NCBI GenBank assembly: GCA_964471145.1
Contig: CAYYGK010000003.1
Span: 1 to 33,237 of the forward strand
DNA from: an uncultured Eubacteriales bacterium
GTDB taxonomy: Bacteria; Bacillota; Clostridia; Acetivibrionales; STF1-152
Direction: 5' to 3'
DNA length: 33,237 bases
The notes beneath the pieces are model-generated. The model saw only the letters and a program-made list of their open reading frames with translations. It searched no databases and had not been told where the DNA came from. Every line of letters begins with the position of its first letter. The stretch's first letter is position 1. Both the position numbers and the translations under genes were made by a program. Positions 1,458 through 20,474 of the stretch are shown here, piece by piece.

Positions 1458-1475
1458 CATGATGTCATTGAATTA

Positions 1476-1783: not shown

Positions 1784-1894
1784 AGATGGTGGTATGGAAA
1801 GGCTGTAATGCAGCAGATTCAGGTGCTTGAGCTGTGGAAATAGCGGGAAATGAAACCTCTTTTTTCACTTGTTTGTTAAATTAAGCTTTTGGTC

Positions 1895-1923
1895 TTGACA
1901 CCCTGTCCTTATAGGGAGACAAT
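1895..1923 (+). promoter_or_regulatory. Candidate promoter for ugd (TTGACA-N17-GACAAT)
   Basis: Perfect -35 TTGACA at 1895..1900, followed by ACCCTGTC, which also follows the -35 box at 3939. The -10 GACAAT at 1918..1923 is weak. Confidence 0.35.
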
Positions 1924-1960
1924 AGTACCTGAAAGTTTTTTGGACAGGGGGATAAAAGAT

Positions 1961-3277
1961 TTGAAAATAGGGGTTTTTGGCACCGGGTATGTGGGGCTGG
2001 TTTCAGGGGTGTGCATTGCCGATTTCGGGCTTAATGTGACATGTGTGGATATTGACGAGAAGAAGATCAGGATGCTAAAGAAGGGAAAGGTGCCCATATA
2101 TGAGCCGGGGCTTGATGTTTACCTTGCAAGGAACATACGCGAGGAGAGGATCAGTTTTACAACGGGTCAGAAGGAGGCGGTTGAAAACAGCGATGTGCTG
2201 TTCATAGCTGTGGGTACGCCCTCCGGGGAAGACGGTACTGCGGATCTTTCGTGTGTATACAGTGTTGCGTCGGCTGTGGGGAAGCATATGAACGGCTACA
2301 AGGTAATAGTCAACAAGAGCACCGTTCCGGTGGGTACGGGAAGGAAGGTCAGGGAGATAATTGAGAATGAGCTTGAGGCAAGAGGAGTAAAGCATGAGTT
2401 CGACGTTGTATCAAACCCCGAATTTCTGCGTGAGGGCAAGGCCATACAGGACTTTACCCACCCCGACAGGATAGTGACAGGTACGGAGAGCGAGAAGGCG
2501 GCGGAGATAATGAGGAAGGTTTACAGGCCGCTTTACCTTAATGAGATCCCGTTCATACACACAAACTTAGAGACAGCCGAGATGATAAAGTATGCCTGCA
2601 ATGCATTCCTTGCAACAAAAATCAGCTTTATAAACGAGATAGCAAACCTGTGTGAAAAGGCCGGTGCAAATGTACAGCAGGTCGCAAGGGCAATGGGACG
2701 GGACGGCAGGATAAGCCCCAAATTCCTGCATGCCGGTCCGGGATTCGGCGGCAGCTGTTTTCCCAAGGATACAAGGGCGCTTGCCGGGATTGGAAGGGAA
2801 AAAGGAAGCATCATGCATGTAGTGGAAGCCGTCATAGAGACAAACGAGAAGCAAAAGCTTGCGGTTTCGCAAAGACTGGCAGGGGAGCTTAAAGGACTTG
2901 AGGGCAGGAAGGTGTGCCTGCTTGGCCTTACATTCAAGCCCGAGACAGATGACATAAGGGAGGCGCCTTCCCTGGCTGTGATTGAAAGCCTTGCAAAGGG
3001 CGGCGCACAGGTAAGGGCATACGACCCTGAGGGTATGGAAACAGCACGGGAGGCCCTTTCCCGTGTTGAGGGCATTGTGTTCTGCAAGCATGCATACGAC
3101 GCAGCCGAGGGTGCTGATGCACTTGTTATACTTACCGAGTGGCATGAATTCAGGAACATGGACCTTATGCTTCTGAGGAAGATAATGAAAACCCCCGTAT
3201 TCTACGACACAAGAAACATATATGTGCGTGAGGATGTCGAAACGGCAGGGTTTAGATACATGGGGACGGGCACATGA
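1961..3277 (+). CDS. ugd: UDP-glucose 6-dehydrogenase
   Basis: NAD-binding motif KIGVFGTGYVGLV at the N-terminus and catalytic-Cys motif GFGGSCFPKD. Length and C-terminal UDP-binding domain are typical. I place the start at TTG 1961 (GGGGGA RBS 8 nt upstream) rather than the ORF-track TTG at 1889, which would contain the candidate promoter. Confidence 0.9.
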   Translation: MKIGVFGTGYVGLVSGVCIADFGLNVTCVDIDEKKIRMLKKGKVPIYEPGLDVYLARNIREERISFTTGQKEAVENSDVLFIAVGTPSGEDGTADLSCVYSVASAVGKHMNGYKVIVNKSTVPVGTGRKVREIIENELEARGVKHEFDVVSNPEFLREGKAIQDFTHPDRIVTGTESEKAAEIMRKVYRPLYLNEIPFIHTNLETAEMIKYACNAFLATKISFINEIANLCEKAGANVQQVARAMGRDGRISPKFLHAGPGFGGSCFPKDTRALAGIGREKGSIMHVVEAVIETNEKQKLAVSQRLAGELKGLEGRKVCLLGLTFKPETDDIREAPSLAVIESLAKGGAQVRAYDPEGMETAREALSRVEGIVFCKHAYDAAEGADALVILTEWHEFRNMDLMLLRKIMKTPVFYDTRNIYVREDVETAGFRYMGTGT

Positions 3278-4009: not shown

Positions 4010-4693
4010 ATGGATAACAATTTTGAGGAAATAAACCTGTCTGAGATACTGGCAGTTCTTGCCAGCAGGTGGTGGATAGTTTTTTTTGCCATGCTGCTAT
4101 GCCTTATAATTGCAGGGGGTTACACATTTTACCTTACCGAACCTGTCTACCAGTCGGACACAAGCCTTTATGTAGGGAAAAAGGTTGATACGCAGGGGGC
4201 AATAGCATACAATGACCTGATACTTGCCGACAGGCTTGTAAACGACTACAGGGAGCTTGTAAAAAGCAGGCTGGTCACCGGCATGGTCATAAAGGAACTG
4301 GACCTTGAGATGACAAGCGGGACACTTGCCCGGATGATCAATGTCAACTCCAAGAAGGACACCCGGCTTATAGAGATTACAGCAGAGAATACAGACCCTG
4401 AGATGGCTATGAAGACAGCAAACAAGATAGCTGAGGTCTTCAAGGAGAAGGTTGTTGAAATAATGGATGTGGAAAACGTCAAGGTTATAGACCAGGCCAT
4501 ACTTCCCACCAGCCCTGTCCGGCCCAATGTCAGGCTCAACCTGGCGATTTCGCTGGTGCTGGGATTTATGCTGGGCGTCTTTATAGTGTTTGTTGCGGAG
4601 TATTTCGACCGTTCGGTAAAGACCCCCGAAGACGTAAAAAAAGCAGTCGGACTGCCGGTAATCGGCATGATACCCGAATTCTCGGAGGAGTGA
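4010..4693 (+). CDS. Wzz/CpsC-type polysaccharide chain-length determinant (transmembrane modulator of the BY-kinase)
   Basis: 227 aa with N- and C-terminal TM helices flanking a periplasm-like domain. Opening sequence EINLSEILAVLASRWW is typical, as is the Pro-rich motif AILPTSPVRPN before TM2. It lies directly upstream of the kinase. Confidence 0.85.
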   Translation: MDNNFEEINLSEILAVLASRWWIVFFAMLLCLIIAGGYTFYLTEPVYQSDTSLYVGKKVDTQGAIAYNDLILADRLVNDYRELVKSRLVTGMVIKELDLEMTSGTLARMINVNSKKDTRLIEITAENTDPEMAMKTANKIAEVFKEKVVEIMDVENVKVIDQAILPTSPVRPNVRLNLAISLVLGFMLGVFIVFVAEYFDRSVKTPEDVKKAVGLPVIGMIPEFSEE

Positions 4694-4697
4694 AAAA

Positions 4698-5429
4698 ATG
4701 TTTGAGGAAAACGCCAACCTGCTTATATCTTTAAGCGATCCAAAATCACCTGTTTCCGAGGCATACAGGGTTTTAAGGACCAATGTTCAGTTCTCCGCCA
4801 TAGACAAGCCGCTAAAGAGCCTTGTAATAACCAGTGCAGGGCCGGGGGAGGGCAAGTCAATCACGGTATGCAACACCGCCATAACCTTTGCACAGGCGGG
4901 CAGCAGGGTATTGGTTATCGACGGTGACCTGAGGAAGCCCAAGATACACAAGATATTCGGGCTCAAGAACAGGAAGGGGCTTACAAATATCCTTGCGCTG
5001 CATGAGGACTATCATGACTATGTTGAAAGCGGGCCGGTAAGCAACCTGGATATCCTTACAAGCGGGGCAATACCCCCAAACCCTTCAGAACTCCTGTCAT
5101 CCAGGTCTATGAAGGAGCTGCTCGGCAGGATCTCCGAAGAGTATGATTATGTTCTGGTTGACTCACCCCCTGTGGGTGTTGTCACCGATGCATCGATTAT
5201 TTCAACAATTGTTGATGGAACTGTTCTTGTAGTGGCGTCAAGGCAGGTGGAAGCAGAAGCGCTCCGCCATTCCAGGGAGCTTTTGGATAAAGTGAATGCC
5301 AACATCATAGGAGTTGTACTAAACAAGATTTCCCGCAGCGAAAAAGGCGGCTACTACTATTACTACTATTACTACGGCAGCGACAGCAAAAGTACCAGGA
5401 AGAAGAAAAGGGGAAGGAAAGAGGCTTAA
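4698..5429 (+). CDS. CpsD/CapB-type bacterial tyrosine kinase (BY-kinase) with a C-terminal Tyr cluster
   Basis: Walker A SAGPGEGKS, Walker A' VIDGDLRKP, Walker B VLVDSPP. The C-terminal run is GGYYYYYYYYGSD. Confidence 0.9.
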   Translation: MFEENANLLISLSDPKSPVSEAYRVLRTNVQFSAIDKPLKSLVITSAGPGEGKSITVCNTAITFAQAGSRVLVIDGDLRKPKIHKIFGLKNRKGLTNILALHEDYHDYVESGPVSNLDILTSGAIPPNPSELLSSRSMKELLGRISEEYDYVLVDSPPVGVVTDASIISTIVDGTVLVVASRQVEAEALRHSRELLDKVNANIIGVVLNKISRSEKGGYYYYYYYYGSDSKSTRKKKRGRKEA

Positions 5430-5430
5430 G

Positions 5431-6225
5431 ATGTACGCCGATATCCATGCGCACATGCTTCCCGGACTGGATGACGGTGCCGCTGATATGGAAACTGCGG
5501 TCAGGATGGCCCTGATAGCATACCGGGAAGGCATAAGGCATATGATTATAACACCGCACTATATTTCCGGGCGGATGGAAAACGGCTGCGATGTCGTTGA
5601 CAGAGGAATCGAAAGTCTTAATGCAGAGCTTTTCAAACGGGAAATAGACTTAAGAATATATCCGGGAAATGAAATGTTCCTTGACATGGAAACCGCAAAG
5701 CGTGTCGAAGACTGCAGGGCGTATTCCCTGAACTCATCCCGCTATGTGCTTGTTGAGCTCCCGCTCTCCGAAGTGCCCGGATACACTGCTGAAGCGCTTT
5801 TTGGCCTTTCGGTGAAGGGATATGTTCCAGTTGTTGCACATCCCGAGCGGAACATAGAAATTGCAGGCAGTCCTGATATTCTGGGTGCTTTCATCAAAAA
5901 CGGAGTGCTTTCGCAGGTTAATGCTTCAAGCTTAAGAGGTGTTTACGGAAACCCGGTCAGGAAAACAGCATTTAAACTCCTTAAAAGCGGCATGGTGCAT
6001 TTTGTCGCAAGTGATGCACACACGCTGTCCGGCAGGAGGCCGGCCATGAACAGTGTTTTTGAGCTTGTTGGGGAGAGATTCGGTGAAGAATTCGCAAGGG
6101 CACTCTTTTTGGATAACGGGATGGCGGTCATTGAGGACAGACAGATAAAAGCAGGGGTATTCAAGCCCCCGCAAAGGCCCGGTAAGGGCTTAATCGGTTC
6201 GGTTCTTGACAGGATAAGGCCCTAG
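5431..6225 (+). CDS. CpsB/YwqE-type PHP-family protein-tyrosine phosphatase
   Basis: N-terminus MYADIHAHMLPGLDDGA, then ITPH, VAHPER and ASDAH metal-binding blocks. It starts 2 nt after the kinase stop. Confidence 0.9.
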   Translation: MYADIHAHMLPGLDDGAADMETAVRMALIAYREGIRHMIITPHYISGRMENGCDVVDRGIESLNAELFKREIDLRIYPGNEMFLDMETAKRVEDCRAYSLNSSRYVLVELPLSEVPGYTAEALFGLSVKGYVPVVAHPERNIEIAGSPDILGAFIKNGVLSQVNASSLRGVYGNPVRKTAFKLLKSGMVHFVASDAHTLSGRRPAMNSVFELVGERFGEEFARALFLDNGMAVIEDRQIKAGVFKPPQRPGKGLIGSVLDRIRP

Positions 6226-6613: not shown

Positions 6614-7600
6614 ATGAAACACGGTAAGATTGATATTGAAAAAGGATCCACATTCCTGGTTACCGGGGGTGCCGGCTTTATCGGGTCAAATATTGTGGAG
6701 GCTTTGCTTGAGGAAGGATTCAAAACAAGGGTGCTGGACAATTTTTCAACCGGCAAGAGGGAGAACATACAGGACTTCCTGGGGGACAGCCTTTTTGAGA
6801 TAATCGAGGGGGATATCAGGGACGAGGGTGTGTGCAGGCAGGCGTGTGAAGGAATGGACTACATTTTGCACCAGGGAGCGCTGGGTTCCGTGCCCAGGTC
6901 GGTGAGTGACCCGGTTACCACAAATGACGTGAACATCGGCGGCACACTCAACATGCTGGTGGCCGCAAGGGACTGCGGCGTCAAGGTGTTTGTGTATGCC
7001 TCCTCGTCATCCGTGTATGGGGACGAACAGCAGCTGCCCAAGGTAGAGCACAGAGTGGGAAGGCCGCTTTCGCCATATGCCACAACAAAAAGGGTAAATG
7101 AGTTCTATGCGCAAAATTTCCATGACCTTTACGGCCTTAAAACCATAGGATTAAGGTACTTTAACGTATTCGGCAGGAGGCAGGACGCCCGTTCTGTGTA
7201 TGCCGCAGTGATACCGATATTCGTAATAAACCTGCTAAAGGGCACCCGGCCTGTCATAAACGGGGACGGGGAGCAGTCCAGGGACTTTACGCATATTGAC
7301 AATGTGATACAGGCAAACATTAAGGCGTGTACCGCAGGAAGCAGGGCGTGGGGTGAGGCGTTCAACATAGCATGCGGTTCAAGGGCCACCATAAACCAGC
7401 TCTATGACAAGCTGCGCACTTTGACGGGCAAGGACCTGGAGCCTGAGTACGGCCCGGAAAGGCCAGGGGACGTAAAACACTCAAATGCTGATATCAGCAA
7501 GGCAGAGGATATACTTGGATACCGCCCGGAGGTGGATATGGATGCAGGACTTGAGAAGGCTATAGGGTGGTATGTGCAAAACCTGACAACGGGATGTTAA
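6614..7600 (+). CDS. NAD-dependent SDR epimerase, TviC/WbpP-like (UDP-GlcNAc / UDP-GlcNAcA C4-epimerase family)
   Basis: VTGGAGFIGSN Rossmann motif, SSSSVYG, and the catalytic YxxxK in SPYATTKRVNE. Blocks LDNFSTG, GDGEQSRDFTHIDNV and PGDVKHSNADISKA resemble the TviC/WbpP subgroup. Confidence 0.8.
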   Translation: MKHGKIDIEKGSTFLVTGGAGFIGSNIVEALLEEGFKTRVLDNFSTGKRENIQDFLGDSLFEIIEGDIRDEGVCRQACEGMDYILHQGALGSVPRSVSDPVTTNDVNIGGTLNMLVAARDCGVKVFVYASSSSVYGDEQQLPKVEHRVGRPLSPYATTKRVNEFYAQNFHDLYGLKTIGLRYFNVFGRRQDARSVYAAVIPIFVINLLKGTRPVINGDGEQSRDFTHIDNVIQANIKACTAGSRAWGEAFNIACGSRATINQLYDKLRTLTGKDLEPEYGPERPGDVKHSNADISKAEDILGYRPEVDMDAGLEKAIGWYVQNLTTGC

Positions 7601-7739: not shown

Positions 7740-7746
7740 ACTGCCG

Positions 7747-7785
7747 CAGGGAATAAATGCCACATAAAATGGTACATATTCCCTG
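7747..7785 (+). promoter_or_regulatory. 5'-leader stem-loop (9-bp perfect inverted repeat CAGGGAATA / TATTCCCTG, 21-nt loop)
   Basis: Read directly from the sequence. It lies immediately downstream of the candidate -10 box and 27 nt upstream of the ATG at 7812. Confidence 0.4.
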
Positions 7786-7811
7786 TTAAATCTGAGGCAG
7801 GAGATAAATAG

Positions 7812-9209
7812 ATGCACAGATCAAACAGGCAGGCTTTTACCAGTATAGTCAGCATGATACTGGATTTAGTTTTCTCAATACTGGCATACGGGGTCGCTCA
7901 CAATGCTGTCAGGCTGATTTACGGTATACAGGCATGCGATGCCTTCATCTGGGCCCTGATTACATACTTTCCTGTATACTTCCTTTCGATGTTTATTATG
8001 GAGATGTATGAGATGACGACATTCATATACCATGACAGGGTGATGAGGAATGTGATCCTCTCATGCCTTGCAGCCTCCCTGTTCTGTGTCGTGATGCTCC
8101 CGTTTATAAAGGAAAACCGTCATAACAGCAGCTTTTTGGGAATATTTATACTGACGGCAGTCTTTTTTATAGGAATGCAGAGGTATGTGATGCTGTTAAC
8201 TGTTGGAAGATACAGGAAACAGGGGCGAACCAGGGGCATACTTGTTGGCAGCTGCACCCTGGTGGAAAAGTATTTCTATTACCTTAAGAAGACCAGCATG
8301 AGCATAAGCATTACAGGGTACATACCGCTTGATGAAAAGGGGGGTACCGGTCCGGGCAGAAAGCTGGGGAGGCTTGACGAACTGGAGGACATCCTCAACA
8401 GCAATGTAGTGGACGAGGTGGTGTTTGCCCTGCCCAGAGACTACATGGGTGAGGTGGAAAGGCATGTTCTGCTGTGTGAGAGCAGGGGGCTGACCGTAAG
8501 GATAATACTGAACCTGTATGACTTAAGGATTTCAAGAAGCTTTGTGCACAGCGTTGGACCCATGCCGGTGCTTACCTATCATACCATAAGCCTGAACAGG
8601 TACCAGCTGGCGCTCAAAAGATGTGTGGACATAGCCGGAAGCCTTGTGGGAATCGCAATAACAGCCGTGATGTCTTTAGCTATTGCTCCTGCGGTGATAA
8701 TAGACTCAGGCAGGCCTGTTCTGTTCAGGCAGAAGAGGGTGGGGCAGAACGGAAGGGTATTTATGATGTACAAGTTCAGGTCAATGTGTGCCCGGGCTGA
8801 GGAAGAGAAAAAGAAGCTTGTGGCCAGGAATGAGATGAGCGGGGGGCTTATGTTCAAGATAAGGAACGACCCCAGGATCACAACGGTGGGGAGATTCCTT
8901 CGCAGGACCAGCCTTGACGAGCTGCCGCAGTTTGTAAATGTGCTAAGAGGGGAAATGAGCCTTGTGGGCACAAGGCCCCCGACAATTGATGAGGTAAAAA
9001 AGTATGACAGTGCGCATCACAGGAGGATAAGCATAAAGCCGGGTATTACAGGTTTGTGGCAGACCAGCGGCAGGAGCGGGATTAAGGATTTTGACGAGAT
9101 TGTCAGGCTGGATACGCAGTATATAGACAGCTGGTCGATTTGGAAGGACTTCCTTATAATATCCAGGACGCTAAAGACAATGTTTGCTCATAACAGGGGA
9201 GCATGTTGA
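7812..9209 (+). CDS. Polyprenyl-phosphate sugar-1-phosphate transferase (WbaP/EpsL-type priming glycosyltransferase)
   Basis: 465 aa with several N-terminal TM helices and a central Rossmann-like linker. The C-terminal sugar-transferase domain has [27 protein letters not shown] and KPGITGLWQ. An AGGAG RBS precedes the ATG. Confidence 0.9.
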
Positions 9210-9239
9210 ACACGTACTGTGGAGGGGGGTATCTGCGAG

Positions 9240-9356
9240 GTGAAGAGGAACAACCTTATTGCAATAGCAATCTGCATAACTGCGATCATATACATATCTG
9301 TGACGCTGCTGGGCACGGAGAGGATATTCGAGGCGGTATCGATGATAGGAAGGTGA
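9240..9356 (+). CDS. Candidate 38-aa single-TM micropeptide (VKRNNLIAIAICITAIIYISVTLLGTERIFEAVSMIGR)
   Basis: GTG start 10 nt after GGAGGGGGG. It fills an otherwise empty 157-nt gap in a tightly packed operon and has a hydrophobic core. It is below the ORF-track size cut-off, and no homology evidence is available. Confidence 0.25.
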   Translation: MKRNNLIAIAICITAIIYISVTLLGTERIFEAVSMIGR

Positions 9357-9366
9357 AAGGGCATAT

Positions 9367-10269
9367 ATGATGAGAACAGCACCATTGTTTGTACTGGGCA
9401 AGCACAGGTCGGGTACTACATTCCTGGCCAATACCCTTGCAGCTCATCCCGGGATAGCAGGCGTATGCCATGAAATGCATGACGGCATCCACGAGAGCGG
9501 TTTCTTTTCGCATGCCGCTCCGCTGTTTGAGAGGATGAAGGGCATACCGGGGTACATTTGGTTTACCGAGGCGTTCTGCCGATCCGACTACTTCAGGCTG
9601 ACAGGGCTTGACGGCAGCGTGTTCTATGAAAAGATAACCGACAGCCCATATGAGTATTTCAGGGTGATGATGGACCGCTTTGCAGTGGGCAAAAAATACT
9701 GGATTGAGAAGACGCCCAACCACACCCTTCATGCGGACAACCTGGCCCGCAACTACCCCGACGCAAGGTTTATAGCCATCAGGAGGGGGTTTAAGGATGT
9801 ACTGCTCTCCGGAATTGTAATGACCATGAGGCATGACCGGAAAAGCGGAGAGAGGGAGAAGAGCAAGGCTTATTACATATTAAGGCTGTGCTTTGCATGC
9901 GCAGTGTATGACAGGGCACTTTCCAGGCACGTGGGGGACAGGCGTTTTCTGCATATAAGGTATGAGGACCTTGTAAGGGACACGGCGAATGTTTTAAGGC
10001 GTGTGTGCCGCTTTTTGGGCATCAGATACTCAGAAAGGCTGCTAAAAGCCAGGTACAGGAAAAACACAAGCTTTGACGGTATGGACAGGAACAAGCTGCT
10101 GGGGGGGGTTGAAATGCGGTGTGCGGTACTGCTGTACCACATGCTGCGTGCAGTACCTTTTGCGATTTCAGGCAGGGTGTACAGGGTTTTTGAGAGAAGG
10201 AGGCTTCCGTGGTGGTTCTACGGCTTCATAAGAAAGGAATACAACCTCAGGGGGGAGGATGCAGTTTGA
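9367..10269 (+). CDS. Sulfotransferase family protein (PAPS-dependent type), copy 1
   Basis: 5'-PSB-like loop GKHRSGTTFLANTL, 3'-PB-like element IRRGFKDVLLS, and a RYEDLV...LRRVCRFLGI block. Confidence 0.8.
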   Translation: MMRTAPLFVLGKHRSGTTFLANTLAAHPGIAGVCHEMHDGIHESGFFSHAAPLFERMKGIPGYIWFTEAFCRSDYFRLTGLDGSVFYEKITDSPYEYFRVMMDRFAVGKKYWIEKTPNHTLHADNLARNYPDARFIAIRRGFKDVLLSGIVMTMRHDRKSGEREKSKAYYILRLCFACAVYDRALSRHVGDRRFLHIRYEDLVRDTANVLRRVCRFLGIRYSERLLKARYRKNTSFDGMDRNKLLGGVEMRCAVLLYHMLRAVPFAISGRVYRVFERRRLPWWFYGFIRKEYNLRGEDAV

Positions 10270-11495
10270 AGGTGCTGTTTGTAAACAAGTTCCTCTACCC
10301 GCGGGCTGGTGCGGAGAGGTATATGTTCAGCCTGGCCGATGAGCTCAAGTCCCAGGGGCACCGAATTGCCTACTTTGGCATGGAGCATCAAAGAAACACG
10401 GTGAATACGGGCAGGAAGGACATAAACGTAAGCAGCAGGGACTTCAGGAATGCAGGGACACCCGGGATGCTTTTAAAGGCCCCCGCCACGGTGTATTCAA
10501 CCGAGGCCAGGAGAAAGATTGCAAGGGTGCTTAAGCTGGAGAAGCCGGACATTGTGCATTTAAACAATATAAACTACCAGCTTACGCCGTCCATAATATA
10601 TGAGATCCGAAAGGAAGGCGTGCCAATGGTGATGACACTGCATGATGCAAACATAGTGTGTCCCAACCACAGCCTTTACAACTACCAGAGAAATGAAATA
10701 TGTACAAGGTGCAGCGGGGGCAGTTAGATGGAGTGCATAAGGACAAGGTGCATACACGGATCGCTTCCAAAAAGCATAGCCGGTGCGGTTGAGGCTACTG
10801 TTTACAGGGGGCTGGGTGTCTACAGTAAGATAGATGTGCTTGTAAGCCCCAGCAGGTTCATGGCCGGGATTTTAAAAAAATTCGGGCTTTTACACCCTGA
10901 TGTAAGAGTTATGCACAACTTCCCGCCTGCGGTCAGGCAGCGTACAGCGGCGGCGGGGGAATATGTGCTGTACTTTGGCAGGCTGTGTATCTCAAAGGGC
11001 ATGGATGTGCTGAGGAAGGCAGCGCAGATGCTGCCGGACATACAGTTTGTTGTGGCGGGGGAGGGTGACTGGGGGCATATGCTTGACGGCTGCCCAAACA
11101 TAAGGAAGACGGGATACCTGTCGGGAGGGGATCTTATCGCCTGCCTGCTGGGGGCGCGCATGGTGGTTGTGCCGTCCAACTGGCACGAGAACTGTTCAAT
11201 GTCCATCCTTGAGGCAAAATCCTTCGGCCTGCCGGTGATAGCCTCCGACACAGGAGGCACACCGGAGATTGTAAGGCATGGCAGGGACGGATTTTTGTTC
11301 GAGAGGGGCAATGCCATACAGCTGGCCGGATACATTCAAAAGCTGTACCGTAACGTGGGTATGGCTGCAGGGTTCTCAATGGCTGCAAGGGCGTTTTGCC
11401 GGAGGAACCCGCTCAAGGCATACGCGGCAAAGATGGTGAATGTATACAGGAGGGCAGGTTCAAAGATACGGGAGGCGGAGTATGGGAGTATATGA
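10266..11495 (+). pseudogene. GT4-family glycosyltransferase interrupted by an in-frame TAG (halves 10266..10727 and 10728..11495)
   Basis: The N-half starts LKVLFVNKFLYPRAGAERYMF (TTG 10266, GGGGGAGG RBS, overlapping the upstream TGA) and has HLNNINYQLTPS and LHDANIVCPNH. TAG at 10725..10727 sits inside a Cys-rich motif (CTRCSGGS*MECIRTRC). The C-half starts at the next codon (ATG) and carries the donor-binding domain (ENCSMSILEAKSFGLPVIASDTGGTPEIVRHGRDGFLF). Together they make a normal GT-B protein of about 410 codons. Confidence 0.8.
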
Positions 11496-12792
11496 AGACA
11501 TTGTAGGGGGAAGCGGCAAGATAGCCGTCGTAGGACTTGGCTATGTGGGAATGCCGCTTGCATACGAGTTCGCAAAGAAGGTTCCTGTCATCGGGTTCGA
11601 TATAGACAGCAGAAAGATAGAATTGTATAGAAACGGAATTGACGTGACAGGGGAGATAGGGGGGGACATGCTGAGAAACAGCAGGATAGAGTTTACTTCC
11701 GACGAGGAGAGGCTCTCTGAAGCACTGTTTATTGTGGTGGCCGTTCCAACCCCCATAAACCGGGACAAGACGCCCGACCTTGAGCCCCTGCGGTCTGCTT
11801 CCGCTGTTGTGGGAAGGAACATGCCTGAAGAAGCAGTGGTGGTATTTGAATCCACTGTGTACCCGGGGGTGACCCGGGAGGTGTGCATGCCCATACTTGA
11901 GAGGGAATCGGGAATGAAGGCAGGAAAGGGATTCAAGGTGGGCTATTCCCCTGAGAGGATAAACCCGGGAGACAGGGAGCATACCTTGTCTTCCATAAAA
12001 AAGATAGTCTCGGGCATGGATGAACAAACTCTTGATGATGTGGCATCGGTGTACCGTCTGATTGTGGATGCGGGTGTTTACAGGGCACAGTCCATAAAGG
12101 TGGCGGAAGCCGCCAAGGTTATAGAGAACGCACAGAGGGACATAAACATAGCATTTATGAATGAGCTGTCCATCATATTCAACAGACTGGAGTTAGATAC
12201 ATCCCAGGTGCTTGAGGCAGCTGCCACCAAGTGGAACTTTTTAAATTTTTATCCTGGACTGGTGGGGGGCCACTGCATAGGGGTGGACCCGTACTACCTT
12301 TCCTACCGTGCTGAGATGACGGGGTACCACCCGCAGATAATACTCTCGGGCAGGAGGATAAACGACAGCATGGGCAAGTATGTGGCAGAGAACACCGTAA
12401 AGCAGCTTATAAGGTCGGGGCGTTCGGTGCTGGGCTCGAAAGTTCTTGTAATGGGGCTTACGTTCAAGGAAAACGTTCCGGATATCCGAAACACAAGGGT
12501 TACGGATGTTATAAAAGAGCTTGCCGAATACGGGGTTGAGGTGTATGTCAACGACCCGGTTGCTGACCGGGAGCAGGCCCGGAAGGAATACGGAACAGGA
12601 CTTGTTGAGCTAAAAGACGTGAGCAGAATTGACGCAATCGTGGTTGCGGTGGCACACAGGCAGTATTCACTGCTGTCGCTTGAAGACCTCAAGGGGATGT
12701 ACAATGACGGCAGGCTCATACTGGTTGACATAAAAGGGGTATTTGACAGGAAGCAGGCTGAGGAAAAGGGGTTTATATACTGGAGCCTGTAG
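11482..12792 (+). CDS. Nucleotide-sugar 6-dehydrogenase, TviB/WbpO/Cap5O-like (UDP-GlcNAc or UDP-ManNAc dehydrogenase)
   Basis: KIAVVGLGYVGMPLA NAD motif and catalytic-Cys block GLVGGHCIGVDPYYL. Start taken as ATG 11482 (GGAGGCGGAG RBS, 14-nt overlap with the upstream gene) rather than 11440. Confidence 0.85.
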   Translation: MGVYEDIVGGSGKIAVVGLGYVGMPLAYEFAKKVPVIGFDIDSRKIELYRNGIDVTGEIGGDMLRNSRIEFTSDEERLSEALFIVVAVPTPINRDKTPDLEPLRSASAVVGRNMPEEAVVVFESTVYPGVTREVCMPILERESGMKAGKGFKVGYSPERINPGDREHTLSSIKKIVSGMDEQTLDDVASVYRLIVDAGVYRAQSIKVAEAAKVIENAQRDINIAFMNELSIIFNRLELDTSQVLEAAATKWNFLNFYPGLVGGHCIGVDPYYLSYRAEMTGYHPQIILSGRRINDSMGKYVAENTVKQLIRSGRSVLGSKVLVMGLTFKENVPDIRNTRVTDVIKELAEYGVEVYVNDPVADREQARKEYGTGLVELKDVSRIDAIVVAVAHRQYSLLSLEDLKGMYNDGRLILVDIKGVFDRKQAEEKGFIYWSL

Positions 12793-12812
12793 GGAAAGGG
12801 GTTACGGATTAA

Positions 12813-13682
12813 ATGAAATGCAGCAATGTACTGTTTGTGACAGGCACAGGAAGGTGCGGCTCGTCGGTGTTCTTCGAGATACTCAGCGGGCATGAAGGCA
12901 TCATGTGGCTTGCCTCAAGCATGAACAGGAAATACAGTACCGCCGTTAACAGGAGGGGAGTGGTTTTAAGGGGGCTTGCAGGGGACGGTCTGCCGGGAAG
13001 GGCAGTGGGCAGCAGGTTCAGGCCTTCGGAGGCATACGGCTTCTGGAACCGGCACTTCCGGGGTTTTGCAGCTACTGCAAGGGATCTTGAGGAACATGAT
13101 GTCATGGAAGTGCAGAGGAAATCACTCCCGGATGCGTTCGGGGAAATGGTCACATCCAGAAGGGCAGTGATGGCCGCAAAGATAACCGGATGGCCCAGGA
13201 TAGGGTTTTTAAAGGAGATATTTCCGGAAGCAAGGTTTTTGCACATTGTAAGGGACGGCAGGGCGGTAGTTAATTCCATGCTCAACGTGGAGTTCTGGCA
13301 GGGCTGGAGGGGCCCGTGGAACTGGAGGATGGGCCTGCTTAAGCCGGAGGACGAGAAGGTGTGGATTGAGAACGGAAGGTCATATGCCATACTGGCTGCA
13401 CTGCAGTGGAATATGCTGATGGACAGGATGAGGGTGTGGAAACAAAGGTACCCCGGGCACATAATGGACATAAGGTATGAGGATATGTGTGCCCGCCCGG
13501 TCCAAACCTTTAAAAAGGCCCTGGAATTTGGCGGGGTGAAGTGGAGCCGAAGGTTTGAAGGCAGGTTAAAGTCATACCGGCTGAAAAATACCAATGACAA
13601 GTGGAAGGAAAACCTGCGGGGCCAGGAGGAGGTACTTGCAAAAGTAATGAGCAGGGGACTCAGGGAATATGGATATATGTGA
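12813..13682 (+). CDS. Sulfotransferase family protein (PAPS-dependent type), copy 2
   Basis: 5'-PSB-like GTGRCGSSVFFEIL, 3'-PB-like HIVRDGRAVVNSM, and a IRYEDMCARPVQTFKKALEFGGV block. It is only distantly related to copy 1. Confidence 0.75.
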   Translation: MKCSNVLFVTGTGRCGSSVFFEILSGHEGIMWLASSMNRKYSTAVNRRGVVLRGLAGDGLPGRAVGSRFRPSEAYGFWNRHFRGFAATARDLEEHDVMEVQRKSLPDAFGEMVTSRRAVMAAKITGWPRIGFLKEIFPEARFLHIVRDGRAVVNSMLNVEFWQGWRGPWNWRMGLLKPEDEKVWIENGRSYAILAALQWNMLMDRMRVWKQRYPGHIMDIRYEDMCARPVQTFKKALEFGGVKWSRRFEGRLKSYRLKNTNDKWKENLRGQEEVLAKVMSRGLREYGYM

Positions 13683-13697: not shown

Positions 13698-15179
13698 TTG
13701 AGTGTGAAGATGATATGCGCAGCAGCCGTAGTGCTGTTTGTAATACTGGCCAGCGCATGCCAGGGAGCATGTACCGTTGAGACAAGTGAATCAGAGATGG
13801 CTTTGGAGACAGGCAGATACATCCTCATAGATCACAGGTGCACCGATATTGACAGCATACCGGAGTACTGGGCCGACAGGGCCGCGGGCAGCCTGCATGT
13901 GGCATACGGGCACACCTCCCACGGCAGCCAGATAACGACAGGCATGGAGGGGCTGACCGAATTCAGGGGGGAGCCGTTCATCTACAGGAAATCCGGGGGC
14001 AGGGGTTCCATAGACCTAAGGGATAATCCGTTTAAGGGGGCCAAAGACCTGGGAAGCCCCGACAACCGCAGCTGGGCAGAAGCAACCGACAAGTACCTTA
14101 CCGGCAACAGCGACATAAACGTTGTAATGTGGTCATGGTGCGGGCAACTGTCCGGGGCGGATGATGAATACGTAGACACCTACCTGGAGTTGATGCAGTG
14201 GCTGGAGGAAAGGTATCCCGATGTGCTGTTCGTCTACATGACAGGGCACCTGGACGGTACGGGAGAGGACGGAAGGCTGAGGAAAAACAATGACAGGATA
14301 AGGAATTTCTGCATGGAAAACGGGAAGGTGCTGTATGACTTTGCAGATATTGAAAGCTACAACCCGGACGGGGAATACTTTGTGGACAGAAACGCAAACG
14401 ACAAGTGTTACTATGACAGCAACGGTGACGGAAAGCTCAATGCAAACTGGGGAAGGCAGTGGCAGAGGGAGCATACCGAAGGCATTGACTGGTACCAGTG
14501 TGAAGCGGCACATACCCAGCCGGTAAATGCCAACATGAAGGCATATGCCGCATGGTGGATGTTTTCCAGGGTTGCGGGCTGGGACGGAGAAGCGGCATCA
14601 TCTAAAGAGGAGAGCTGTGTATATTATGCAGACAGTCTGTGGCAGGCAGGGCTGCTGCGTGGAACAGCAACAGGTTTGAACCTTGACTGGGAACCTACCA
14701 GGTTAGAGGGTGCGGCCATGATAACCAGATTGCTGGGCGGGGAGAAGGAAGCCCTGGATGAGTCCTACAGTCATCCGTTTGCCGATGCGGCAGACGGCTG
14801 GGGAAGCCCTTATGTGGGATATCTTTACAGGTACGGCCTCACAAAGGGGGTATCGGCTGTCAGTTTCGGTGCGGCTCTTAACCTGAGGGCGGTGTCATAT
14901 GCAACGTATATGCTGAGAATACTGGGATACTCCGATGACCCTGCGGTGGGGGATTTCAGCTGGAGCACCGCACTTTCAAAGGCACAGGAAATAGGTGCCA
15001 TAGGGCCGGACTACAGGATAACGCTTGAGAGCGGGTTTAACAGGGGGCATATGGCCAGGATTACCTACAGGTTTTTGTTCCAGAAGCTTAAAGGAACAAA
15101 TCAGACACTATTGGACAAGCTGGTATCCGAGAATGTTGTGGACAGCAAAACAGCACAGAAACTGGTGAATAAGAGATGA
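13698..15179 (+). CDS. Secreted or lipid-anchored protein: uncharacterised N-terminal domain plus C-terminal SLH-like repeats
   Basis: TTG start 7 nt after AGGAGGG. Signal peptide with a lipobox-like ILASAC. The N-domain has conserved-looking blocks VAYGHTSHGSQ, VVMWSWCGQ and VYMTGHLDG. The C-terminal third contains SLH-like segments (HPFADAADGWGSPYVGYLYRYGLTKGVS...YATYMLRILGY). Confidence 0.6.
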   Translation: MSVKMICAAAVVLFVILASACQGACTVETSESEMALETGRYILIDHRCTDIDSIPEYWADRAAGSLHVAYGHTSHGSQITTGMEGLTEFRGEPFIYRKSGGRGSIDLRDNPFKGAKDLGSPDNRSWAEATDKYLTGNSDINVVMWSWCGQLSGADDEYVDTYLELMQWLEERYPDVLFVYMTGHLDGTGEDGRLRKNNDRIRNFCMENGKVLYDFADIESYNPDGEYFVDRNANDKCYYDSNGDGKLNANWGRQWQREHTEGIDWYQCEAAHTQPVNANMKAYAAWWMFSRVAGWDGEAASSKEESCVYYADSLWQAGLLRGTATGLNLDWEPTRLEGAAMITRLLGGEKEALDESYSHPFADAADGWGSPYVGYLYRYGLTKGVSAVSFGAALNLRAVSYATYMLRILGYSDDPAVGDFSWSTALSKAQEIGAIGPDYRITLESGFNRGHMARITYRFLFQKLKGTNQTLLDKLVSENVVDSKTAQKLVNKR

Positions 15180-15895: not shown

Positions 15896-16566
15896 TACAG
15901 AAAGAAAACAGGCACTTGAGGAACTTAAAGCCCGGCAGCAGGGAACGGGACGGCTGTTTCATGGTATCAATAGCCGGAATAGCCGGTGATATAGTGTTCA
16001 ATGAGCTAAAGGGCAGAGAAATCAGGACTGTAGTGCTTGTAAGCACTTTTGACGGTGACGGAAAGAGCGAGATAGCCGACCACCTGGCGTGTGAGTTTGC
16101 CTTTTCCGGAACGCATACGCTGCTTTTGAACATGGACAGGCCAAACCCCGGGGGATATGTGCTCAGAATGCGCAGTTTCAAGGAGGAAGGCCAGATGCCG
16201 GAGATTACCGGAACAAATGTATCAAACCTTGATTACAGTACTCTGTACAGCCGGCTGGAGAGCAGGATACCCGACTATGACAGGGAGTCTTTAAAGGAGC
16301 TGTTCGACTTGTACAGTGAGAAATACAGGAGGATTATAGTTGACACCTCGTCCCTTTCAGCAGATGTGTCAGGCTTCATAGCGGCAGGCCTGGCAGATGC
16401 GGTGTATTTCATTTGCAGCAGGAAGAACATGCGGGCATGGGAAATAACCGACTGCTACAACAGGCTCAGGGACATAGGAGCAAACATGCCTGGTATCATA
16501 TACAACCGATGTTCAAGGCGTACGGTAAGGAAAATATACAAACAGGACGGCAGGGAAAAATGGTGA
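15892..16566 (+). CDS. Degenerate BY-kinase-like P-loop protein lacking the Tyr cluster
   Basis: GTGA overlap, with AGGAGG 10 nt upstream. It aligns with the kinase at 4698 but the motifs are altered: Walker A STFDGDGKS, A' LLLNMDRPNP, B IIVDTSS. There is no C-terminal Tyr run (it ends ...IYKQDGREKW). Confidence 0.55.
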   Translation: MIQKENRHLRNLKPGSRERDGCFMVSIAGIAGDIVFNELKGREIRTVVLVSTFDGDGKSEIADHLACEFAFSGTHTLLLNMDRPNPGGYVLRMRSFKEEGQMPEITGTNVSNLDYSTLYSRLESRIPDYDRESLKELFDLYSEKYRRIIVDTSSLSADVSGFIAAGLADAVYFICSRKNMRAWEITDCYNRLRDIGANMPGIIYNRCSRRTVRKIYKQDGREKW

Positions 16567-18143
16567 AGCTGAAATTAAAATCAGAGAGTACCGGAAAATC
16601 GGTGGTGTTTTCCACGGTTTTCAGCCTTGTGGCCAAATCGCTGACATTTGTACAGGCAATGATAGTGTCATACTATTTCGGGGCTACCGGGGACACGGAT
16701 ATGTTTTTTTTCTGCGTATCGCTTATAATGCTGCTGCCCGGCCTGTTCAACAACATAAACCAGGCAGTTATCGTACCCAATGCGATAAAAATCCGCGAAA
16801 CAAGGTCAAGGGAGGAAAGCCACAGGTTTGTGCTGTATGTATACCTGTTCTATGTGATTGCAGGTTTAATCGGCAGCGTTGCGGCAAGCCTTGCACCGCA
16901 GGAATTCATGATGCTTGTCTCAAGGTTCGGCATGGAGCAGGTCCAGCAGAACATAATCATTGTAAAGCTTATGATACCCACATTTTTCTTTGTGCTGGTG
17001 AATACATATGTACTAAATGTTTTTACCTCGTACAAGTATTTTACGTTTCCGATGGTTTCGGACATGATAAAGAGCCTGCTGATTATTGCATTTATAGCTG
17101 TTTTCGGTACGAGGTACGGCGTTGCAAGCATGGCGGCGGGGGTGCTGGCCGCCCATGTAATTCAGTTCTTTCTGCTGAACTACATGCTGGTAAAGCTGCT
17201 GGGCTTTAAATTTAAGCCACACAGGTACAGGTTTGATACCAAACAGAAGAGAAATGTCGTGTTTGTGGTGGTATCTCAGACAGCAAGCATACTTAACCAG
17301 TACATAGCCATATACCTGATATCCGGGTTAAGTGACGGGGTGTATTCGGCATTAAGCTACAGTAACAAGATTTTTAACCTGCTGGTGCTTGTGTTTGTGG
17401 GGCAGGTGTCTACGGTTGTGGGAATAAATATGATTGAGCTTTATGCAAAGAAGGTTTTTGACATATTGAACAGGGAGTTTTTAAAGTATGTAAAAGTAAC
17501 GATGACAGTGCTGCTGCCGGTTAGTTTCATTCTTTCTTTTCAATCCGTACGCATCATATCGGTGCTGCTGGAGAGGGGCAGGTTTGATGCTGAGTCCGTG
17601 CAGCTTACCAGTATGTTTTTCAGGTTTATAATACTTATGATACCGGTAATGATGCTAGACAGGCTTGTGGTACGTCTCATAATAGCCAGGCAGATTATGC
17701 ACGTGTCTTTTATATGGAATGTCATAGGCAAGGTATTGTCCATGTCGGCAGTTTTTGTAATCATTAACTATGCAGACTACAGGTATTATACACTTGGCCT
17801 TGTTCTGGTGGAGGCGGTGTATGTCGCTATGATGTATCTGTTCCTTGTAAGGAAGCATTTCAGATTCATAGATGTGCCGGGGGTGTTTAAATACATGGCC
17901 GCAAGCATATGTACGATAGCGGCTGTAAGCTACGGATTTTCGGGGATATTCTCGGTGTTTGAAACGGTAAACGTGTTGCAGAAGGCCGCAGTTACTGCAC
18001 TGTACGGCGGGGCTGTACTGGCAGGGTATTATATGGTGGGGTATGTTATGGGGTACAACAGGGAGACCCTCATTTTTCTTATGGGGTATGTAAAAAGGAT
18101 TAAAGCCAGGCTGCCATGGCTTTCGGGAAACTTAAAGGCATAA
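16560..18143 (+). CDS. MOP-superfamily polysaccharide flippase (MurJ/MviN-like Wzx)
   Basis: About 527 aa with roughly 12-14 hydrophobic helices. N-terminal block AKSLTFVQAMIVSYYFGATGDTDMFFF resembles MurJ/Wzx. Start taken as ATG 16560 (ATGGTGA overlap with the upstream stop) rather than 16413. Confidence 0.8.
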   Translation: MVKLKLKSESTGKSVVFSTVFSLVAKSLTFVQAMIVSYYFGATGDTDMFFFCVSLIMLLPGLFNNINQAVIVPNAIKIRETRSREESHRFVLYVYLFYVIAGLIGSVAASLAPQEFMMLVSRFGMEQVQQNIIIVKLMIPTFFFVLVNTYVLNVFTSYKYFTFPMVSDMIKSLLIIAFIAVFGTRYGVASMAAGVLAAHVIQFFLLNYMLVKLLGFKFKPHRYRFDTKQKRNVVFVVVSQTASILNQYIAIYLISGLSDGVYSALSYSNKIFNLLVLVFVGQVSTVVGINMIELYAKKVFDILNREFLKYVKVTMTVLLPVSFILSFQSVRIISVLLERGRFDAESVQLTSMFFRFIILMIPVMMLDRLVVRLIIARQIMHVSFIWNVIGKVLSMSAVFVIINYADYRYYTLGLVLVEAVYVAMMYLFLVRKHFRFIDVPGVFKYMAASICTIAAVSYGFSGIFSVFETVNVLQKAAVTALYGGAVLAGYYMVGYVMGYNRETLIFLMGYVKRIKARLPWLSGNLKA

Positions 18144-18162: not shown

Positions 18163-19329
18163 ATGAAAAGAATTGCAGCAATAATGTCAAACCTTGGGTA
18201 TGGAGGGGCTGAGATTCAGTCCATTGAACTGTTTAATGGTCTGTATGAGCAGGGATTCTCCATAATGATAGTAGTACTGGAAGACAGGAGAAAGGACCTT
18301 GAGGACAGGTTTCACAACGGCATTAAGATCGTTTATGTTGACAGGAAGGGATATGCCGATACAGCCGCTGTTTCAAGGGTTGCACATCTTTTAAAAGATT
18401 ACGGTACTGACTGCATGGTGCTGGTGGACAGCTATCCGGTGCTGTACGGGTTCCTGCTAAAAGCGTTTTTCAGGCTGGACATACCGTCAATTGTGATACT
18501 TCATAATACCGTTCCCACAAGCTTCAAAAGGGCCGTTCAGAACAGGATGGTCTATGCATGGGCGGTAAACAGGATGGACCGCATAGTATTCGTATGCGAA
18601 AAGCAGTGGGAGTACTGGAGAAAACGTTATGGTATAAGCAGGAGAAAGTCGCTTGTGATACGCAACGGCATAGACATACGGCATTTTGAGAAATACAGTT
18701 TGTGCCATGGAAGGGCCGCATGCAGGAAAATGCTCAACCTGCCCGATACGGCTCACATTTTCATGATGAATACCTGCCTCCTTCCGCAGAAGAGGCATGA
18801 GCATATGATCCAGGCACTGGCAAGACTTAAGAGTGAAGGCAGGAACATCTTTGTTGTCATAACAGGGGACGGGCCGAGAAGGGAGTACATTGAGGAACTC
18901 TCAAAGAAACTGGGTGTAAATGAAAGCCTCAGGATAACCGGTTTCGTAAGGGATGTAAGGCCCTGGATTATGGCCTCTGACGTGCTGGTGCTGACATCAA
19001 CTTCCGAAACCCTTTCTATGGCGGCAATAGAAAGCATGGCAATGAGCAAGCCGGTTATACTGTCAGACACAGGGGGGGCATCTGAGATTGTCAGGCATGG
19101 CGTAAACGGGTACCTTTACCCCCCAGGAAACATACCCCGTTTGACAGAGTGCCTGAGAGATGCTGTTGATTCGGGGTGCCTGAGGCAGATGGGCCACAAG
19201 TCAGCCGGGAGGGCAAAGAAGTTGTTTGACCGTGGCAGGATGGTTGCAGAATATGCATCACTGATACGAGCTGCCATAAGCGGAGAACCGGAAGGCCTTA
19301 AAGTGAGGAAAGAGGAGGGCGTCGTATGA
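18163..19329 (+). CDS. GT4-family glycosyltransferase
   Basis: The GGAEIQ N-terminal motif is typical of GT4. The C-terminal block is SETLSMAAIESMAMSKPVILSDTGGASEIVRHGVNGYLY. A GGGGGAAGG RBS precedes the start. Confidence 0.85.
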   Translation: MKRIAAIMSNLGYGGAEIQSIELFNGLYEQGFSIMIVVLEDRRKDLEDRFHNGIKIVYVDRKGYADTAAVSRVAHLLKDYGTDCMVLVDSYPVLYGFLLKAFFRLDIPSIVILHNTVPTSFKRAVQNRMVYAWAVNRMDRIVFVCEKQWEYWRKRYGISRRKSLVIRNGIDIRHFEKYSLCHGRAACRKMLNLPDTAHIFMMNTCLLPQKRHEHMIQALARLKSEGRNIFVVITGDGPRREYIEELSKKLGVNESLRITGFVRDVRPWIMASDVLVLTSTSETLSMAAIESMAMSKPVILSDTGGASEIVRHGVNGYLYPPGNIPRLTECLRDAVDSGCLRQMGHKSAGRAKKLFDRGRMVAEYASLIRAAISGEPEGLKVRKEEGVV

Positions 19330-20474
19330 AGATTGCCATGATAGGGCTAAGGGGTATACCCTCGCGTGCCGGGGGAGTAGAGATACATGTGGAGCAGACC
19401 GCCAGGAGGCTTGTTCAGATGGGATGCAGTGTGGAGGTTTACTGCCGAAGAAGGTACTGCACCGGAAAAGGCAGGTACTATGAAGGCATAAGGAGGGTCT
19501 TTGTTCCTGCTCTGAATTCCAGGGCACTGGAAACCATAACTCATTCTCTGCTCTCTACGCTGACAGCAGTGTTCAGGGGCTGTGAGATCATTCACTACCA
19601 TGCACTGGGACCGTCTGCGCTGGCATTTATACCAAGGCTGCTGGGCAGGAAGGTGGTTTGCACGATACACGGGCTTGACTGGAAAAGGAGTAAATGGGGA
19701 GGGCTGTCCTCGGCATTTCTTAAGTTTGGAGAGTATGCGTCCGCATCGTTTGCACACAGCGTGATAAGCGTATCAAGGTCGCTGCCGGCCTACTACAGGG
19801 AAAAGTACGGCAGGGATATTGAGTTCATAGGAAACGGGACGGTTAAGGCCCATATCAGGAGTCCGCAGATAATCAGCAGGAAGTACGGGCTTGAAAAGGA
19901 TTCATACATACTCTTTATGGCAAGGCTCGTACCGGAAAAGGGTGCGCACTACCTTATAGAGGCATACAACAGGCTTTCTCCTGAAAAGAAGCTGGTTATA
20001 GCGGGAAGCTCAAGCCACACCAACGGGTATGAGAAGAGCCTCAGGCGCATGGCAGGGGGCAGCGGTAATATCATATTTACCGGGCATGTTGAGGGGAAAG
20101 AGCAGGATGAGCTCTACAGCAATGCATACATGTATGTGCTTCCCTCCGACATCGAGGGGATGCCAATAAGCCTGCTGGAAGCAATGACTTACGGGAACTG
20201 CTGCCTGGTAAGCGACATTGAGGAGAACGCATCGGTGGTCTCGGATTTTGGATATACGTTTACGAAGGGAAGCATTAACGACCTGGCACTTAAGATGAGC
20301 GTTCTTTTAAGCGATGAGGGTTCGGTACACAGCATTAAAAGGGCTGTGACGGGTTATGCAAAAGACAGGTTCAACTGGGACCGCGCAGCCGAGAGGACCC
20401 TCAAGGTTTATGAGGAAGCAGGGTACATTCACAAGCTGGAGAGGGGTATTAATGAAAACAACCAGGCTACCTAG
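19326..20474 (+). CDS. GT4-family glycosyltransferase with a DUF1972-like N-terminus (WchF-type)
   Basis: ATGA overlap. N-terminus MKIAMIGLRGIPSRAGGVEIHVEQTARRLVQMG...VYCR. C-terminal block DIEGMPISLLEAMTYGNCCLVSD. Confidence 0.8.
   Translation: MKIAMIGLRGIPSRAGGVEIHVEQTARRLVQMGCSVEVYCRRRYCTGKGRYYEGIRRVFVPALNSRALETITHSLLSTLTAVFRGCEIIHYHALGPSALAFIPRLLGRKVVCTIHGLDWKRSKWGGLSSAFLKFGEYASASFAHSVISVSRSLPAYYREKYGRDIEFIGNGTVKAHIRSPQIISRKYGLEKDSYILFMARLVPEKGAHYLIEAYNRLSPEKKLVIAGSSSHTNGYEKSLRRMAGGSGNIIFTGHVEGKEQDELYSNAYMYVLPSDIEGMPISLLEAMTYGNCCLVSDIEENASVVSDFGYTFTKGSINDLALKMSVLLSDEGSVHSIKRAVTGYAKDRFNWDRAAERTLKVYEEAGYIHKLERGINENNQAT

Follow-up and report, generated by a model that had tools for sequence, protein, structure and literature searches.

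Described polysaccharide sulfation loci and their likeness to the window

The nearest functional analog of the locus analyzed here, and a tested precedent for it, is the synechan (xss) cluster on plasmid pSYSM of Synechocystis sp. PCC 6803, which encodes Wzx/Wzy and two sulfotransferases of distinct subfamilies and whose polymer bears two sulfates per repeat, with sulfation proposed to take place at the cytoplasmic repeat-unit stage (PMC8205485). Sulfotransferases are also encoded in the capsule clusters of Vibrio sp. KMM 8419 (PMC11641403) and Cobetia marina KMM 1449 (PMC11766843), whose polymers were chemically shown to be sulfated, and in the Wzx/Wzy-type cluster wps-1 of the Gram-positive Actinoplanes missouriensis, which carries two sulfotransferases of different families and for which sulfation was predicted from sequence (PMC13390465). 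Here, we analyzed a stretch of 33,237 nucleotides (contig CAYYGK010000003.1 of assembly GCA_964471145.1, positions 1 to 33,237 of the forward strand; hereafter the window), in which two sulfotransferase genes, ST1 and ST2, stand within one long array of extracellular polysaccharide (EPS) genes that probably makes a sulfated sugar polymer.

Like xss, the window holds a flippase-dependent heteropolysaccharide cluster with two sulfotransferases of different subfamilies and many glycosyltransferases, including members of glycosyltransferase family 4 (GT4). ST1 shares 26% identity with one of the xss sulfotransferases (E = 6e-16), while no similarity was detectable between ST2 and the other, and neither protein is an ortholog of XssA/XssE. 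The two systems also differ in their surroundings. The xss host is a Gram-negative cyanobacterium with PCP/OPX export and the window carries a Gram-positive CpsB/C/D module; xss has the XssQ/R/S regulators, and genes for STAND or two-component regulators are missing from the window; synechan is based on neutral sugars, whereas the window encodes enzymes for UDP-glucuronic acid (UDP-GlcA) and UDP-N-acetylhexosaminuronic acid (UDP-HexNAcA); and xss is a Wzx/Wzy system, whereas no Wzy was seen in the window. The Vibrio and Cobetia clusters resemble it in having sulfotransferase genes inside a polysaccharide cluster and belong to a different phylum, and that of Vibrio sp. KMM 8419 has its own cysNDC genes to make 3′-phosphoadenosine 5′-phosphosulfate (PAPS), the sulfate donor, and exports by an ABC transporter, in contrast to the window, which has a flippase and no PAPS genes. 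The wps-1 host is an actinomycete, its sulfotransferases are Gal/GlcNAc-ST-like and HS-ST-like rather than members of two Sulfotransfer_3 subfamilies, and it lacks the CpsB phosphatase module.

A preliminary description of this DNA, made from its letters and translations, had treated sulfated bacterial glycans as rare. That claim is weaker than it was put, given that sulfotransferase genes are frequent among sequenced bacterial polysaccharide loci and that there are a tested precedent, several described cases (PMC8205485, PMC11641403, PMC11766843, PMC13390465) and a locus in a Bacillota metagenome-assembled genome (MAG) described below; what stands is that no characterized sulfated-polysaccharide locus of the Bacillota (Firmicutes, Clostridia, Bacillus) was found in the literature searched. 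What is new is thus a Gram-positive example and two uncharacterized subfamilies; the theme itself is known from other bacteria.

ST1 and ST2 have the PAPS-sulfotransferase fold

ST1 (9367..10269, + strand, 300 amino acids [aa]) and ST2 (12813..13682, + strand, 289 aa) had been picked out in the preliminary description as two distantly related sulfotransferases, with profile searches and structure prediction proposed as checks, and both checks bore the call out. Against Sulfotransfer_3 (PF13469; curated cutoff, 27), ST1 scored 105.7 bits (E = 5.4e-30) and ST2 scored 70.5 bits (E = 3.1e-19), both far above threshold, and the two proteins also passed Sulfotransfer_1 (PF00685). They are 23% identical to each other over 128 aa (E = 1e-4), which indicated remote kinship only.

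All of the motifs quoted in that description are present in the translations. In ST1 these are a 5′-phosphosulfate-binding (PSB) loop, GKHRSGTT, at residues 11 to 18, a 3′-phosphate-binding (3′-PB) element, RRGFKDVLLS, at residues 139 to 148, and a RYEDL block, and their counterparts in ST2 are GTGRCGSS (residues 11 to 18), RDGRAVVNS (residues 147 to 155), and RYEDM. Invariant residues were called from two family alignments, A1 for the ST1 family and A2 for the ST2 family. A1 yielded R14 and G16 of the PSB loop, K115 (in EKTP), R140, and S148, and A2 yielded G11, G13, R14, G16, E73, K123, R147, and S155. When the family profiles were compared with PDB, the PSB loops of both proteins aligned with GVPRSGTT of tyrosylprotein sulfotransferase (TPST) and their 3′-PB motifs (R-x7-S) with VRDGRASVHS of the same enzyme; K115, the catalytic-site lysine of ST1, aligned with the Lys of the TPST KDP motif. 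Conserved candidates for the catalytic Lys and the general base are K115, H119, and E43 in ST1 and K123 and E73 in ST2, the general-base assignment being putative in both enzymes.

The ST1 family profile matched the OLS sulfotransferase domain (E = 2.7e-21), TPST1 (E = 5e-19), and the CurM sulfotransferase (E = 8e-19), and the ST2 family profile matched TPST1 (E = 5e-10). AlphaFold2 models had pLDDT (predicted local distance difference test) scores of 92.6 for ST1 and 92.7 for ST2, and for each model all 50 of the 50 PDB matches listed by Foldseek were sulfotransferase-fold proteins, mostly solved with bound 3′-phosphoadenosine 5′-phosphate (PAP). The best E values were 9e-9 (ST1) and 1e-8 (ST2), with template-modeling scores of ~0.5 to 0.6; at the top stood the CurM and OLS sulfotransferase domains, TPST2, Stf9, and Stf1 for ST1 and TPST1, TPST2, the CurM sulfotransferase domain, and Stf9 for ST2. 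The best solved-structure matches, TPST1/2, CurM, and OLS, have in common with ST1 and ST2 an Arg-containing PSB loop (GxxRSGTT), a Lys after beta-strand 3, and RDGRxxxxS; they differ in that identity is 14 to 21%, that their acceptors are peptide tyrosine or beta-hydroxyacyl-acyl carrier protein, and that the window offers no matching genomic context. These results indicated that both ST1 and ST2 genuinely belong to the PAPS-sulfotransferase fold and that their cofactor-binding motifs are intact. Neither a signal peptide nor a transmembrane (TM) segment was predicted in either protein, and both should therefore act in the cytoplasm.

The ST1 subfamily has in addition a conserved C-terminal aromatic motif, LPxWFF, at residues ~279 to 290 (window positions ~10200 to 10240) on a predicted terminal helix, which may be a membrane-interface or acceptor-binding element.

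ST1 and ST2 are integral members of the operon

At both sulfotransferase genes the intergenic distances range from -4 to 20 nucleotides (nt) and the neighbors are on the same strand. The ST1 stop codon overlaps the TTG start of the following GT4 gene (10266..11495, + strand) by 4 nt (TTGA), while ST2 lies 20 and 15 nt from its neighbors and ST1 follows a 38-codon open reading frame (ORF; 9240..9356, + strand) that ends 10 nt before its start and stands between it and the priming transferase gene. Thus, the translational coupling asserted for both genes in the preliminary description holds at the stop-start overlap of ST1 and GT4; it does not hold across the gaps around ST2, nor does ST1 follow the priming transferase directly. 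The GC content at third codon positions (GC3) is 0.64 for ST1 and 0.65 for ST2, compared with 0.60 to 0.65 for the neighbors, and no convincing internal terminator or promoter that would isolate the sulfotransferases was found at ~4.0 to 15.7 kb, where counts were near chance. A recent insertion of the two genes was considered and found to have left no sign, since GC and GC3 match those of the flanking genes.

The closest relative of the locus is L011, a 5-kb Logan contig from SRR28370465, which has the same gene order, in which cpsD, cpsB, and then the epimerase and priming transferase genes precede the first part of ST1, and is 96% identical in nucleotide sequence over 671 aligned bases, from the 3′ end of the priming transferase gene into the beginning of ST1. 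Over the 66 N-terminal codons of ST1 shared with L011 there are 15 synonymous and 3 nonsynonymous differences, and ST1 is therefore under purifying selection relative to this contig. The 38-codon ORF, which is unannotated, has a GTG start and a strong Shine-Dalgarno site, and encodes a single-TM peptide by sequence and TM prediction, is intact in L011 with six synonymous and two nonsynonymous differences and probably represents a genuine small membrane protein encoded in the operon. Together, these data indicated that ST1 and ST2 belong to the operon as integral parts and match it in composition.

Relatives of both subfamilies lie in glycan loci

The ST1 subfamily comprised 107 cluster representatives at E ≤ 1e-30, and all four of the independent loci examined were glycan clusters in which the sulfotransferase lies directly beside GT4 genes. 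Two ST1-relative loci are arranged GT4-sulfotransferase-GT4, one metagenome cluster encodes a pyruvyl transferase and GT2 and GT4 enzymes besides a second sulfotransferase, and a Myxococcota MAG shows the same 4-nt sulfotransferase/GT4 overlap as the window along with two more sulfotransferases and a Wzy_C gene.

The ST2 subfamily is large (>1300 homologs, with 435 confirmed in GTDB genomes) and in these genomes occurs mainly in Gemmatimonadales, Rhodanobacteraceae, Chloroflexota, and Acidimicrobiales. Genes for GT4, AsnB-like, and tyrosine-kinase proteins recur in the neighborhoods of ST2 relatives, and in ~9 loci of Acidimicrobiales/Burkholderiales the ST2 homolog is flanked by homologs of the window GT4 genes that start at 10266 and 19326; one such ST2-relative locus (L072) has the order Wzx, GT4, sulfotransferase, Wzy_C, GT2, GT4. 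A gene for adenosine 5′-phosphosulfate (APS) kinase was found ≤10 kb from the ST2 homolog in 10 of 80 loci, which ties the ST2 subfamily to PAPS. One of these 10 is the Bacillota locus mentioned above (L044; JAKSCU010000571.1, Bacillota MAG.313, positions 673-11452), which encodes a CpsD-like protein, a TviC-like protein with 54% identity to that of the window, DUF218, GT4, APS kinase (PF01583, E = 9e-65), GT4, AsnB, a tandem-rhodanese protein, and a sulfotransferase of the ST2 family (37 to 38% identity), with APS kinase and the rhodanese-domain gene both near the latter. With L044, a Bacillota genome thus has a "sulfation cassette" that is self-contained. Its phylum and its CpsD-like, TviC-like, DUF218, GT4, AsnB-like, and ST2-family genes are shared with the window, from which it differs in that APS kinase and the rhodanese gene lie inside the locus and one sulfotransferase is visible; it is uncharacterized and distantly related.

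These observations indicated that both subfamilies, which are widespread and uncharacterized, are consistently located in glycan loci. Plasmid-borne relatives from Azospirillum/Sinorhizobium were also considered as a guide to the acceptor and proved uninformative, as they are <31% identical and lie in unrelated contexts.

Proposed route to a sulfated polymer and competing explanations

PAPS-dependent sulfation of a lipid-linked repeat unit is the best explanation of these data, and we regard it as rather probable. In this pathway the priming transferase, together with several GT4 enzymes, would assemble the repeat unit on undecaprenyl phosphate at the inner membrane face, from nucleotide-sugar donors that would include UDP-GlcA and UDP-HexNAcA. 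ST1 and ST2, as soluble enzymes, would each add one sulfate ester to the lipid-linked cytoplasmic unit, probably targeting two positions or two different sugars, and the MOP flippase would then export the sulfated unit. We infer the repeat unit as acceptor, its sulfation before flipping (as proposed for synechan, PMC8205485), the two distinct sites, and a supply of PAPS by the host genome. The consistent pairing with GT4 genes suggests that the sulfotransferases either use the product of the neighboring GT4 as their substrate or generate the acceptor for it.

The polymer had been described beforehand as uronic-acid-rich and glycosaminoglycan (GAG)-like. In support of this, the UGD, TviB-like, and TviC-like enzymes make glucuronic acid and N-acetylglucosaminuronic/N-acetylgalactosaminuronic acid likely constituents; on the other side, the AsnB-like and WbuX-like amidotransferases could neutralize or alter acid groups. 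More broadly, the amidotransferases, acyltransferases, and carrier protein/AMP-ligase suggest further modification, which could lower the net acidity of the product. "Uronic-acid-rich" is therefore a presumed property, and "GAG-like" is a loose analogy. Tentatively, and with more doubt than assurance, we suggest that this might be the first recognizable Bacillota/Clostridia locus for a naturally sulfated hexuronic/hexosaminuronic (GAG-like) EPS, in which enzymes of two unrelated Sulfotransfer_3 subfamilies would sulfate two positions and which would be decorated via a carrier-protein/AMP-ligase/amidotransferase module.

Several findings weigh against sulfation of a lipid-linked repeat unit by this locus. 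In the databases searched, identity to even the closest relatives of ST1 and ST2 is no more than 40 to 46%, and no relative is characterized; acceptor specificity is not readable from sequence, and more distant Sulfotransfer_3 members occur in non-glycan contexts. Moreover, the reading frame of the GT4 gene that is coupled to ST1 is interrupted by a TAG at 10725-10727, inside a conserved Cys-rich motif (…CTRCSGGS*MECIRTRC…); homologs in at least eight loci have no stop there and carry L, T, or P instead. The window lacks a Wzy_C or EpsG Pfam match, and its only ORFs with ≥3 TM segments are those for the priming transferase and the flippase; the 493-aa product of 13698-15179 was considered as a Wzy candidate and rejected, as it has one N-terminal TM/signal segment and no Pfam family. 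As the preliminary description had noted, PAPS-synthesis genes are missing as well: the annotated window ORFs contain no ATP-sulfurylase or APS-kinase domain, and a tblastn search of the window with APS kinase gave no match. Production of a polymer by this copy of the locus is uncertain in view of the in-frame stop and the absence of Wzy from the window, and the locus copy could be decaying or nonfunctional, with intact sulfotransferases and no sulfated polymer because GT4 is truncated or PAPS is not supplied. ST1 and ST2 are, in addition, singletons, each found on one contig only. We nevertheless consider decay unlikely. All other genes across ~30 kb are intact and tightly packed, and ST1 is under purifying selection, as noted above. 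The lone TAG, which is directly followed by an ATG, could represent a nonsense mutation with real decay, a sequencing or assembly error, strain-level variation, or a split gene; Wzy may lie beyond the 3′ end of the window, where the locus continues; and PAPS genes usually lie elsewhere in a genome.

The nature of the acceptor admits two further explanations. One is that sulfate is placed not on a released or capsular EPS but on a related glycoconjugate, which could be a secondary cell-wall polymer anchored to the wall, a glycolipid, or a glycan linked to protein. Glycolipids are often the substrates of the carbohydrate sulfotransferases known from bacteria, e.g., NodH, Stf0, and KpsS (PMC11625862), and the gene after ST2 (13698-15179) encodes a secreted protein whose C-terminal part has an S-layer homology (SLH)-like segment; the SLH match is below threshold and not significant (E = 0.16), and the CpsB/C/D module, priming transferase, and flippase are standard machinery for EPS or capsular polysaccharide (CPS), which makes this explanation quite improbable. 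The other is that the acceptor of one or both enzymes is not a carbohydrate but, for example, a peptide or protein tyrosine, a lipid, or a small metabolite, in which case their link to the EPS operon would be no more than a physical one. A 2026 survey counted 338 Sulfotransfer_3 entries in Firmicutes and characterized ErSULT of Eubacterium ramulus, whose homologs are mainly from Clostridia and which sulfonates hydroxy fatty acids (PMC13449962), a result that adds to the points against a carbohydrate acceptor. The best structural and sequence matches of ST2 are TPSTs, and the locus also encodes a carrier protein and an AMP-ligase. The similarity to TPST is, however, confined to the PAPS-binding core (15 to 19% identity), and GT4 genes recur on the flanks of relatives from both subfamilies in different phyla. 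Peptide sulfation of the TPST/RaxST type finds no support, as the window has no precursor-peptide or peptidase-exporter genes and ST1 and ST2 are predicted to be cytoplasmic. We thus hold a non-carbohydrate acceptor to be very improbable.

If sulfation of the lipid-linked repeat unit is correct, the locus would extend the known taxonomic reach of polysaccharide sulfation in bacteria to a Gram-positive anaerobe with an acidic heteropolysaccharide, and two new carbohydrate-sulfotransferase subfamilies would become available for enzymology and glyco-engineering. The concept would be unchanged, as cytoplasmic PAPS-dependent sulfation in polysaccharide clusters is established in cyanobacteria and has been inferred in several other phyla. 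Sulfated polysaccharides (heparin-, carrageenan-, and fucoidan-like) are valuable, and microbial production routes to them are few; if the GAG-like reading also holds, the locus would offer a Gram-positive route to such polymers, distinct from the cyanobacterial and proteobacterial routes.

Organization of the remainder of the locus

All genes of the array are on the same strand (+), and domain searches with Pfam and NCBIfam recovered the neighbors listed in the preliminary description (priming transferase, GT4, UDP-N-acetylhexosamine dehydrogenase, ugd, and TviB/TviC-like genes) as described. Upstream of ST1 lie ugd, for a TuaD-like UDP-glucose 6-dehydrogenase (1889..3277; NCBIfam, 539.9 bits), and a segment (4010..6225) that encodes CpsC (Wzz/GNVR), CpsD (a tyrosine-kinase ATPase; ParA/AAA_31), and CpsB (a PHP phosphatase; CpsB_CapC, E = 5.8e-63), the Gram-positive module for control of chain length and export. 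These are followed by a TviC-like NAD-dependent epimerase (6614..7600; NCBIfam TviC, E = 3.1e-96), possibly a UDP-HexNAcA 4-epimerase, and by the priming polyprenyl-phosphate sugar-phosphate transferase (7812..9209; Bac_transf, E = 1.8e-64), which has five TM segments. Between ST1 and ST2, the GT4 gene with the in-frame stop is matched by Pfam in two separate halves, and the TviB-like UDP-N-acetylhexosamine 6-dehydrogenase gene (11440..12792) scores 499.8 bits against NCBIfam TviB (cutoff, 592; E = 5.7e-150), with the ATG at 11482 as its likely true start from start-site context.

Directly after ST2 comes the gene for the 493-aa protein discussed above (13698..15179). Further downstream are a MOP-family (MurJ/Wzx-like) flippase with ~13 TM segments (16413..18143; Pfam MurJ, E = 2.7e-34), whose true start is probably later than 16413, and two more GT4 genes (18163..20474), the second at 19326-20474. 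The segment 22495..29067 holds decoration genes, recognized with Pfam and NCBIfam, for a DUF2334/deacetylase-like protein, two hexapeptide acyltransferases, a carrier protein (a weak PP-binding match), a WbuX-like N-acetyl-sugar amidotransferase, an AMP-ligase, and an AsnB-like amidotransferase, and this module suggests amidation and acyl/aminoacyl substitution of the polymer. A DUF218 gene (Pfam) also belongs to the locus. A fifth GT4 gene (partial ORF 32266-33237) runs past the 3′ end of the window, so that the locus is incomplete there.

By Pfam, the window has the priming transferase, CpsC/CpsD, CpsB PHP phosphatase, and MOP flippase of a CpsBCD-type EPS/CPS locus. Among named organisms, the priming transferase is closest to proteins from Clostridia and Bacillota (Acetivibrio, Clostridium, Peptococcaceae, Paenibacillus, and Pseudobacteroides; 44 to 50% identity). 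The window thus holds most of a Bacillota EPS locus of the CpsB/C/D type, in agreement with the Gram-positive-type locus first proposed, and the CpsB/C/D architecture together with the identity of the priming transferase places the host in the Bacillota, probably in Clostridia.

Three further features of the array were noted. The Rpn/YhgA-like gene at 236-1318 has a GC content of 0.376, compared with 0.45 to 0.55 for the EPS locus; given this step, and with little flank in the window, horizontal acquisition of the locus as an island is possible. At 15176-16566 there is another, divergent pair of CpsC-like and CpsD-like genes (TIGR01006, E = 2.5e-13; TIGR01007, E = 3e-10), and its CpsD-like member, which has no significant Pfam P-loop match, may be a degenerate kinase. 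Finally, two large GH129/DUF5696-like proteins, which may serve in trimming or release of the polymer or in some other role, and one of which has an N-terminal TM segment, are encoded inside the biosynthetic locus, at 20356-22491 and 29119-30960.

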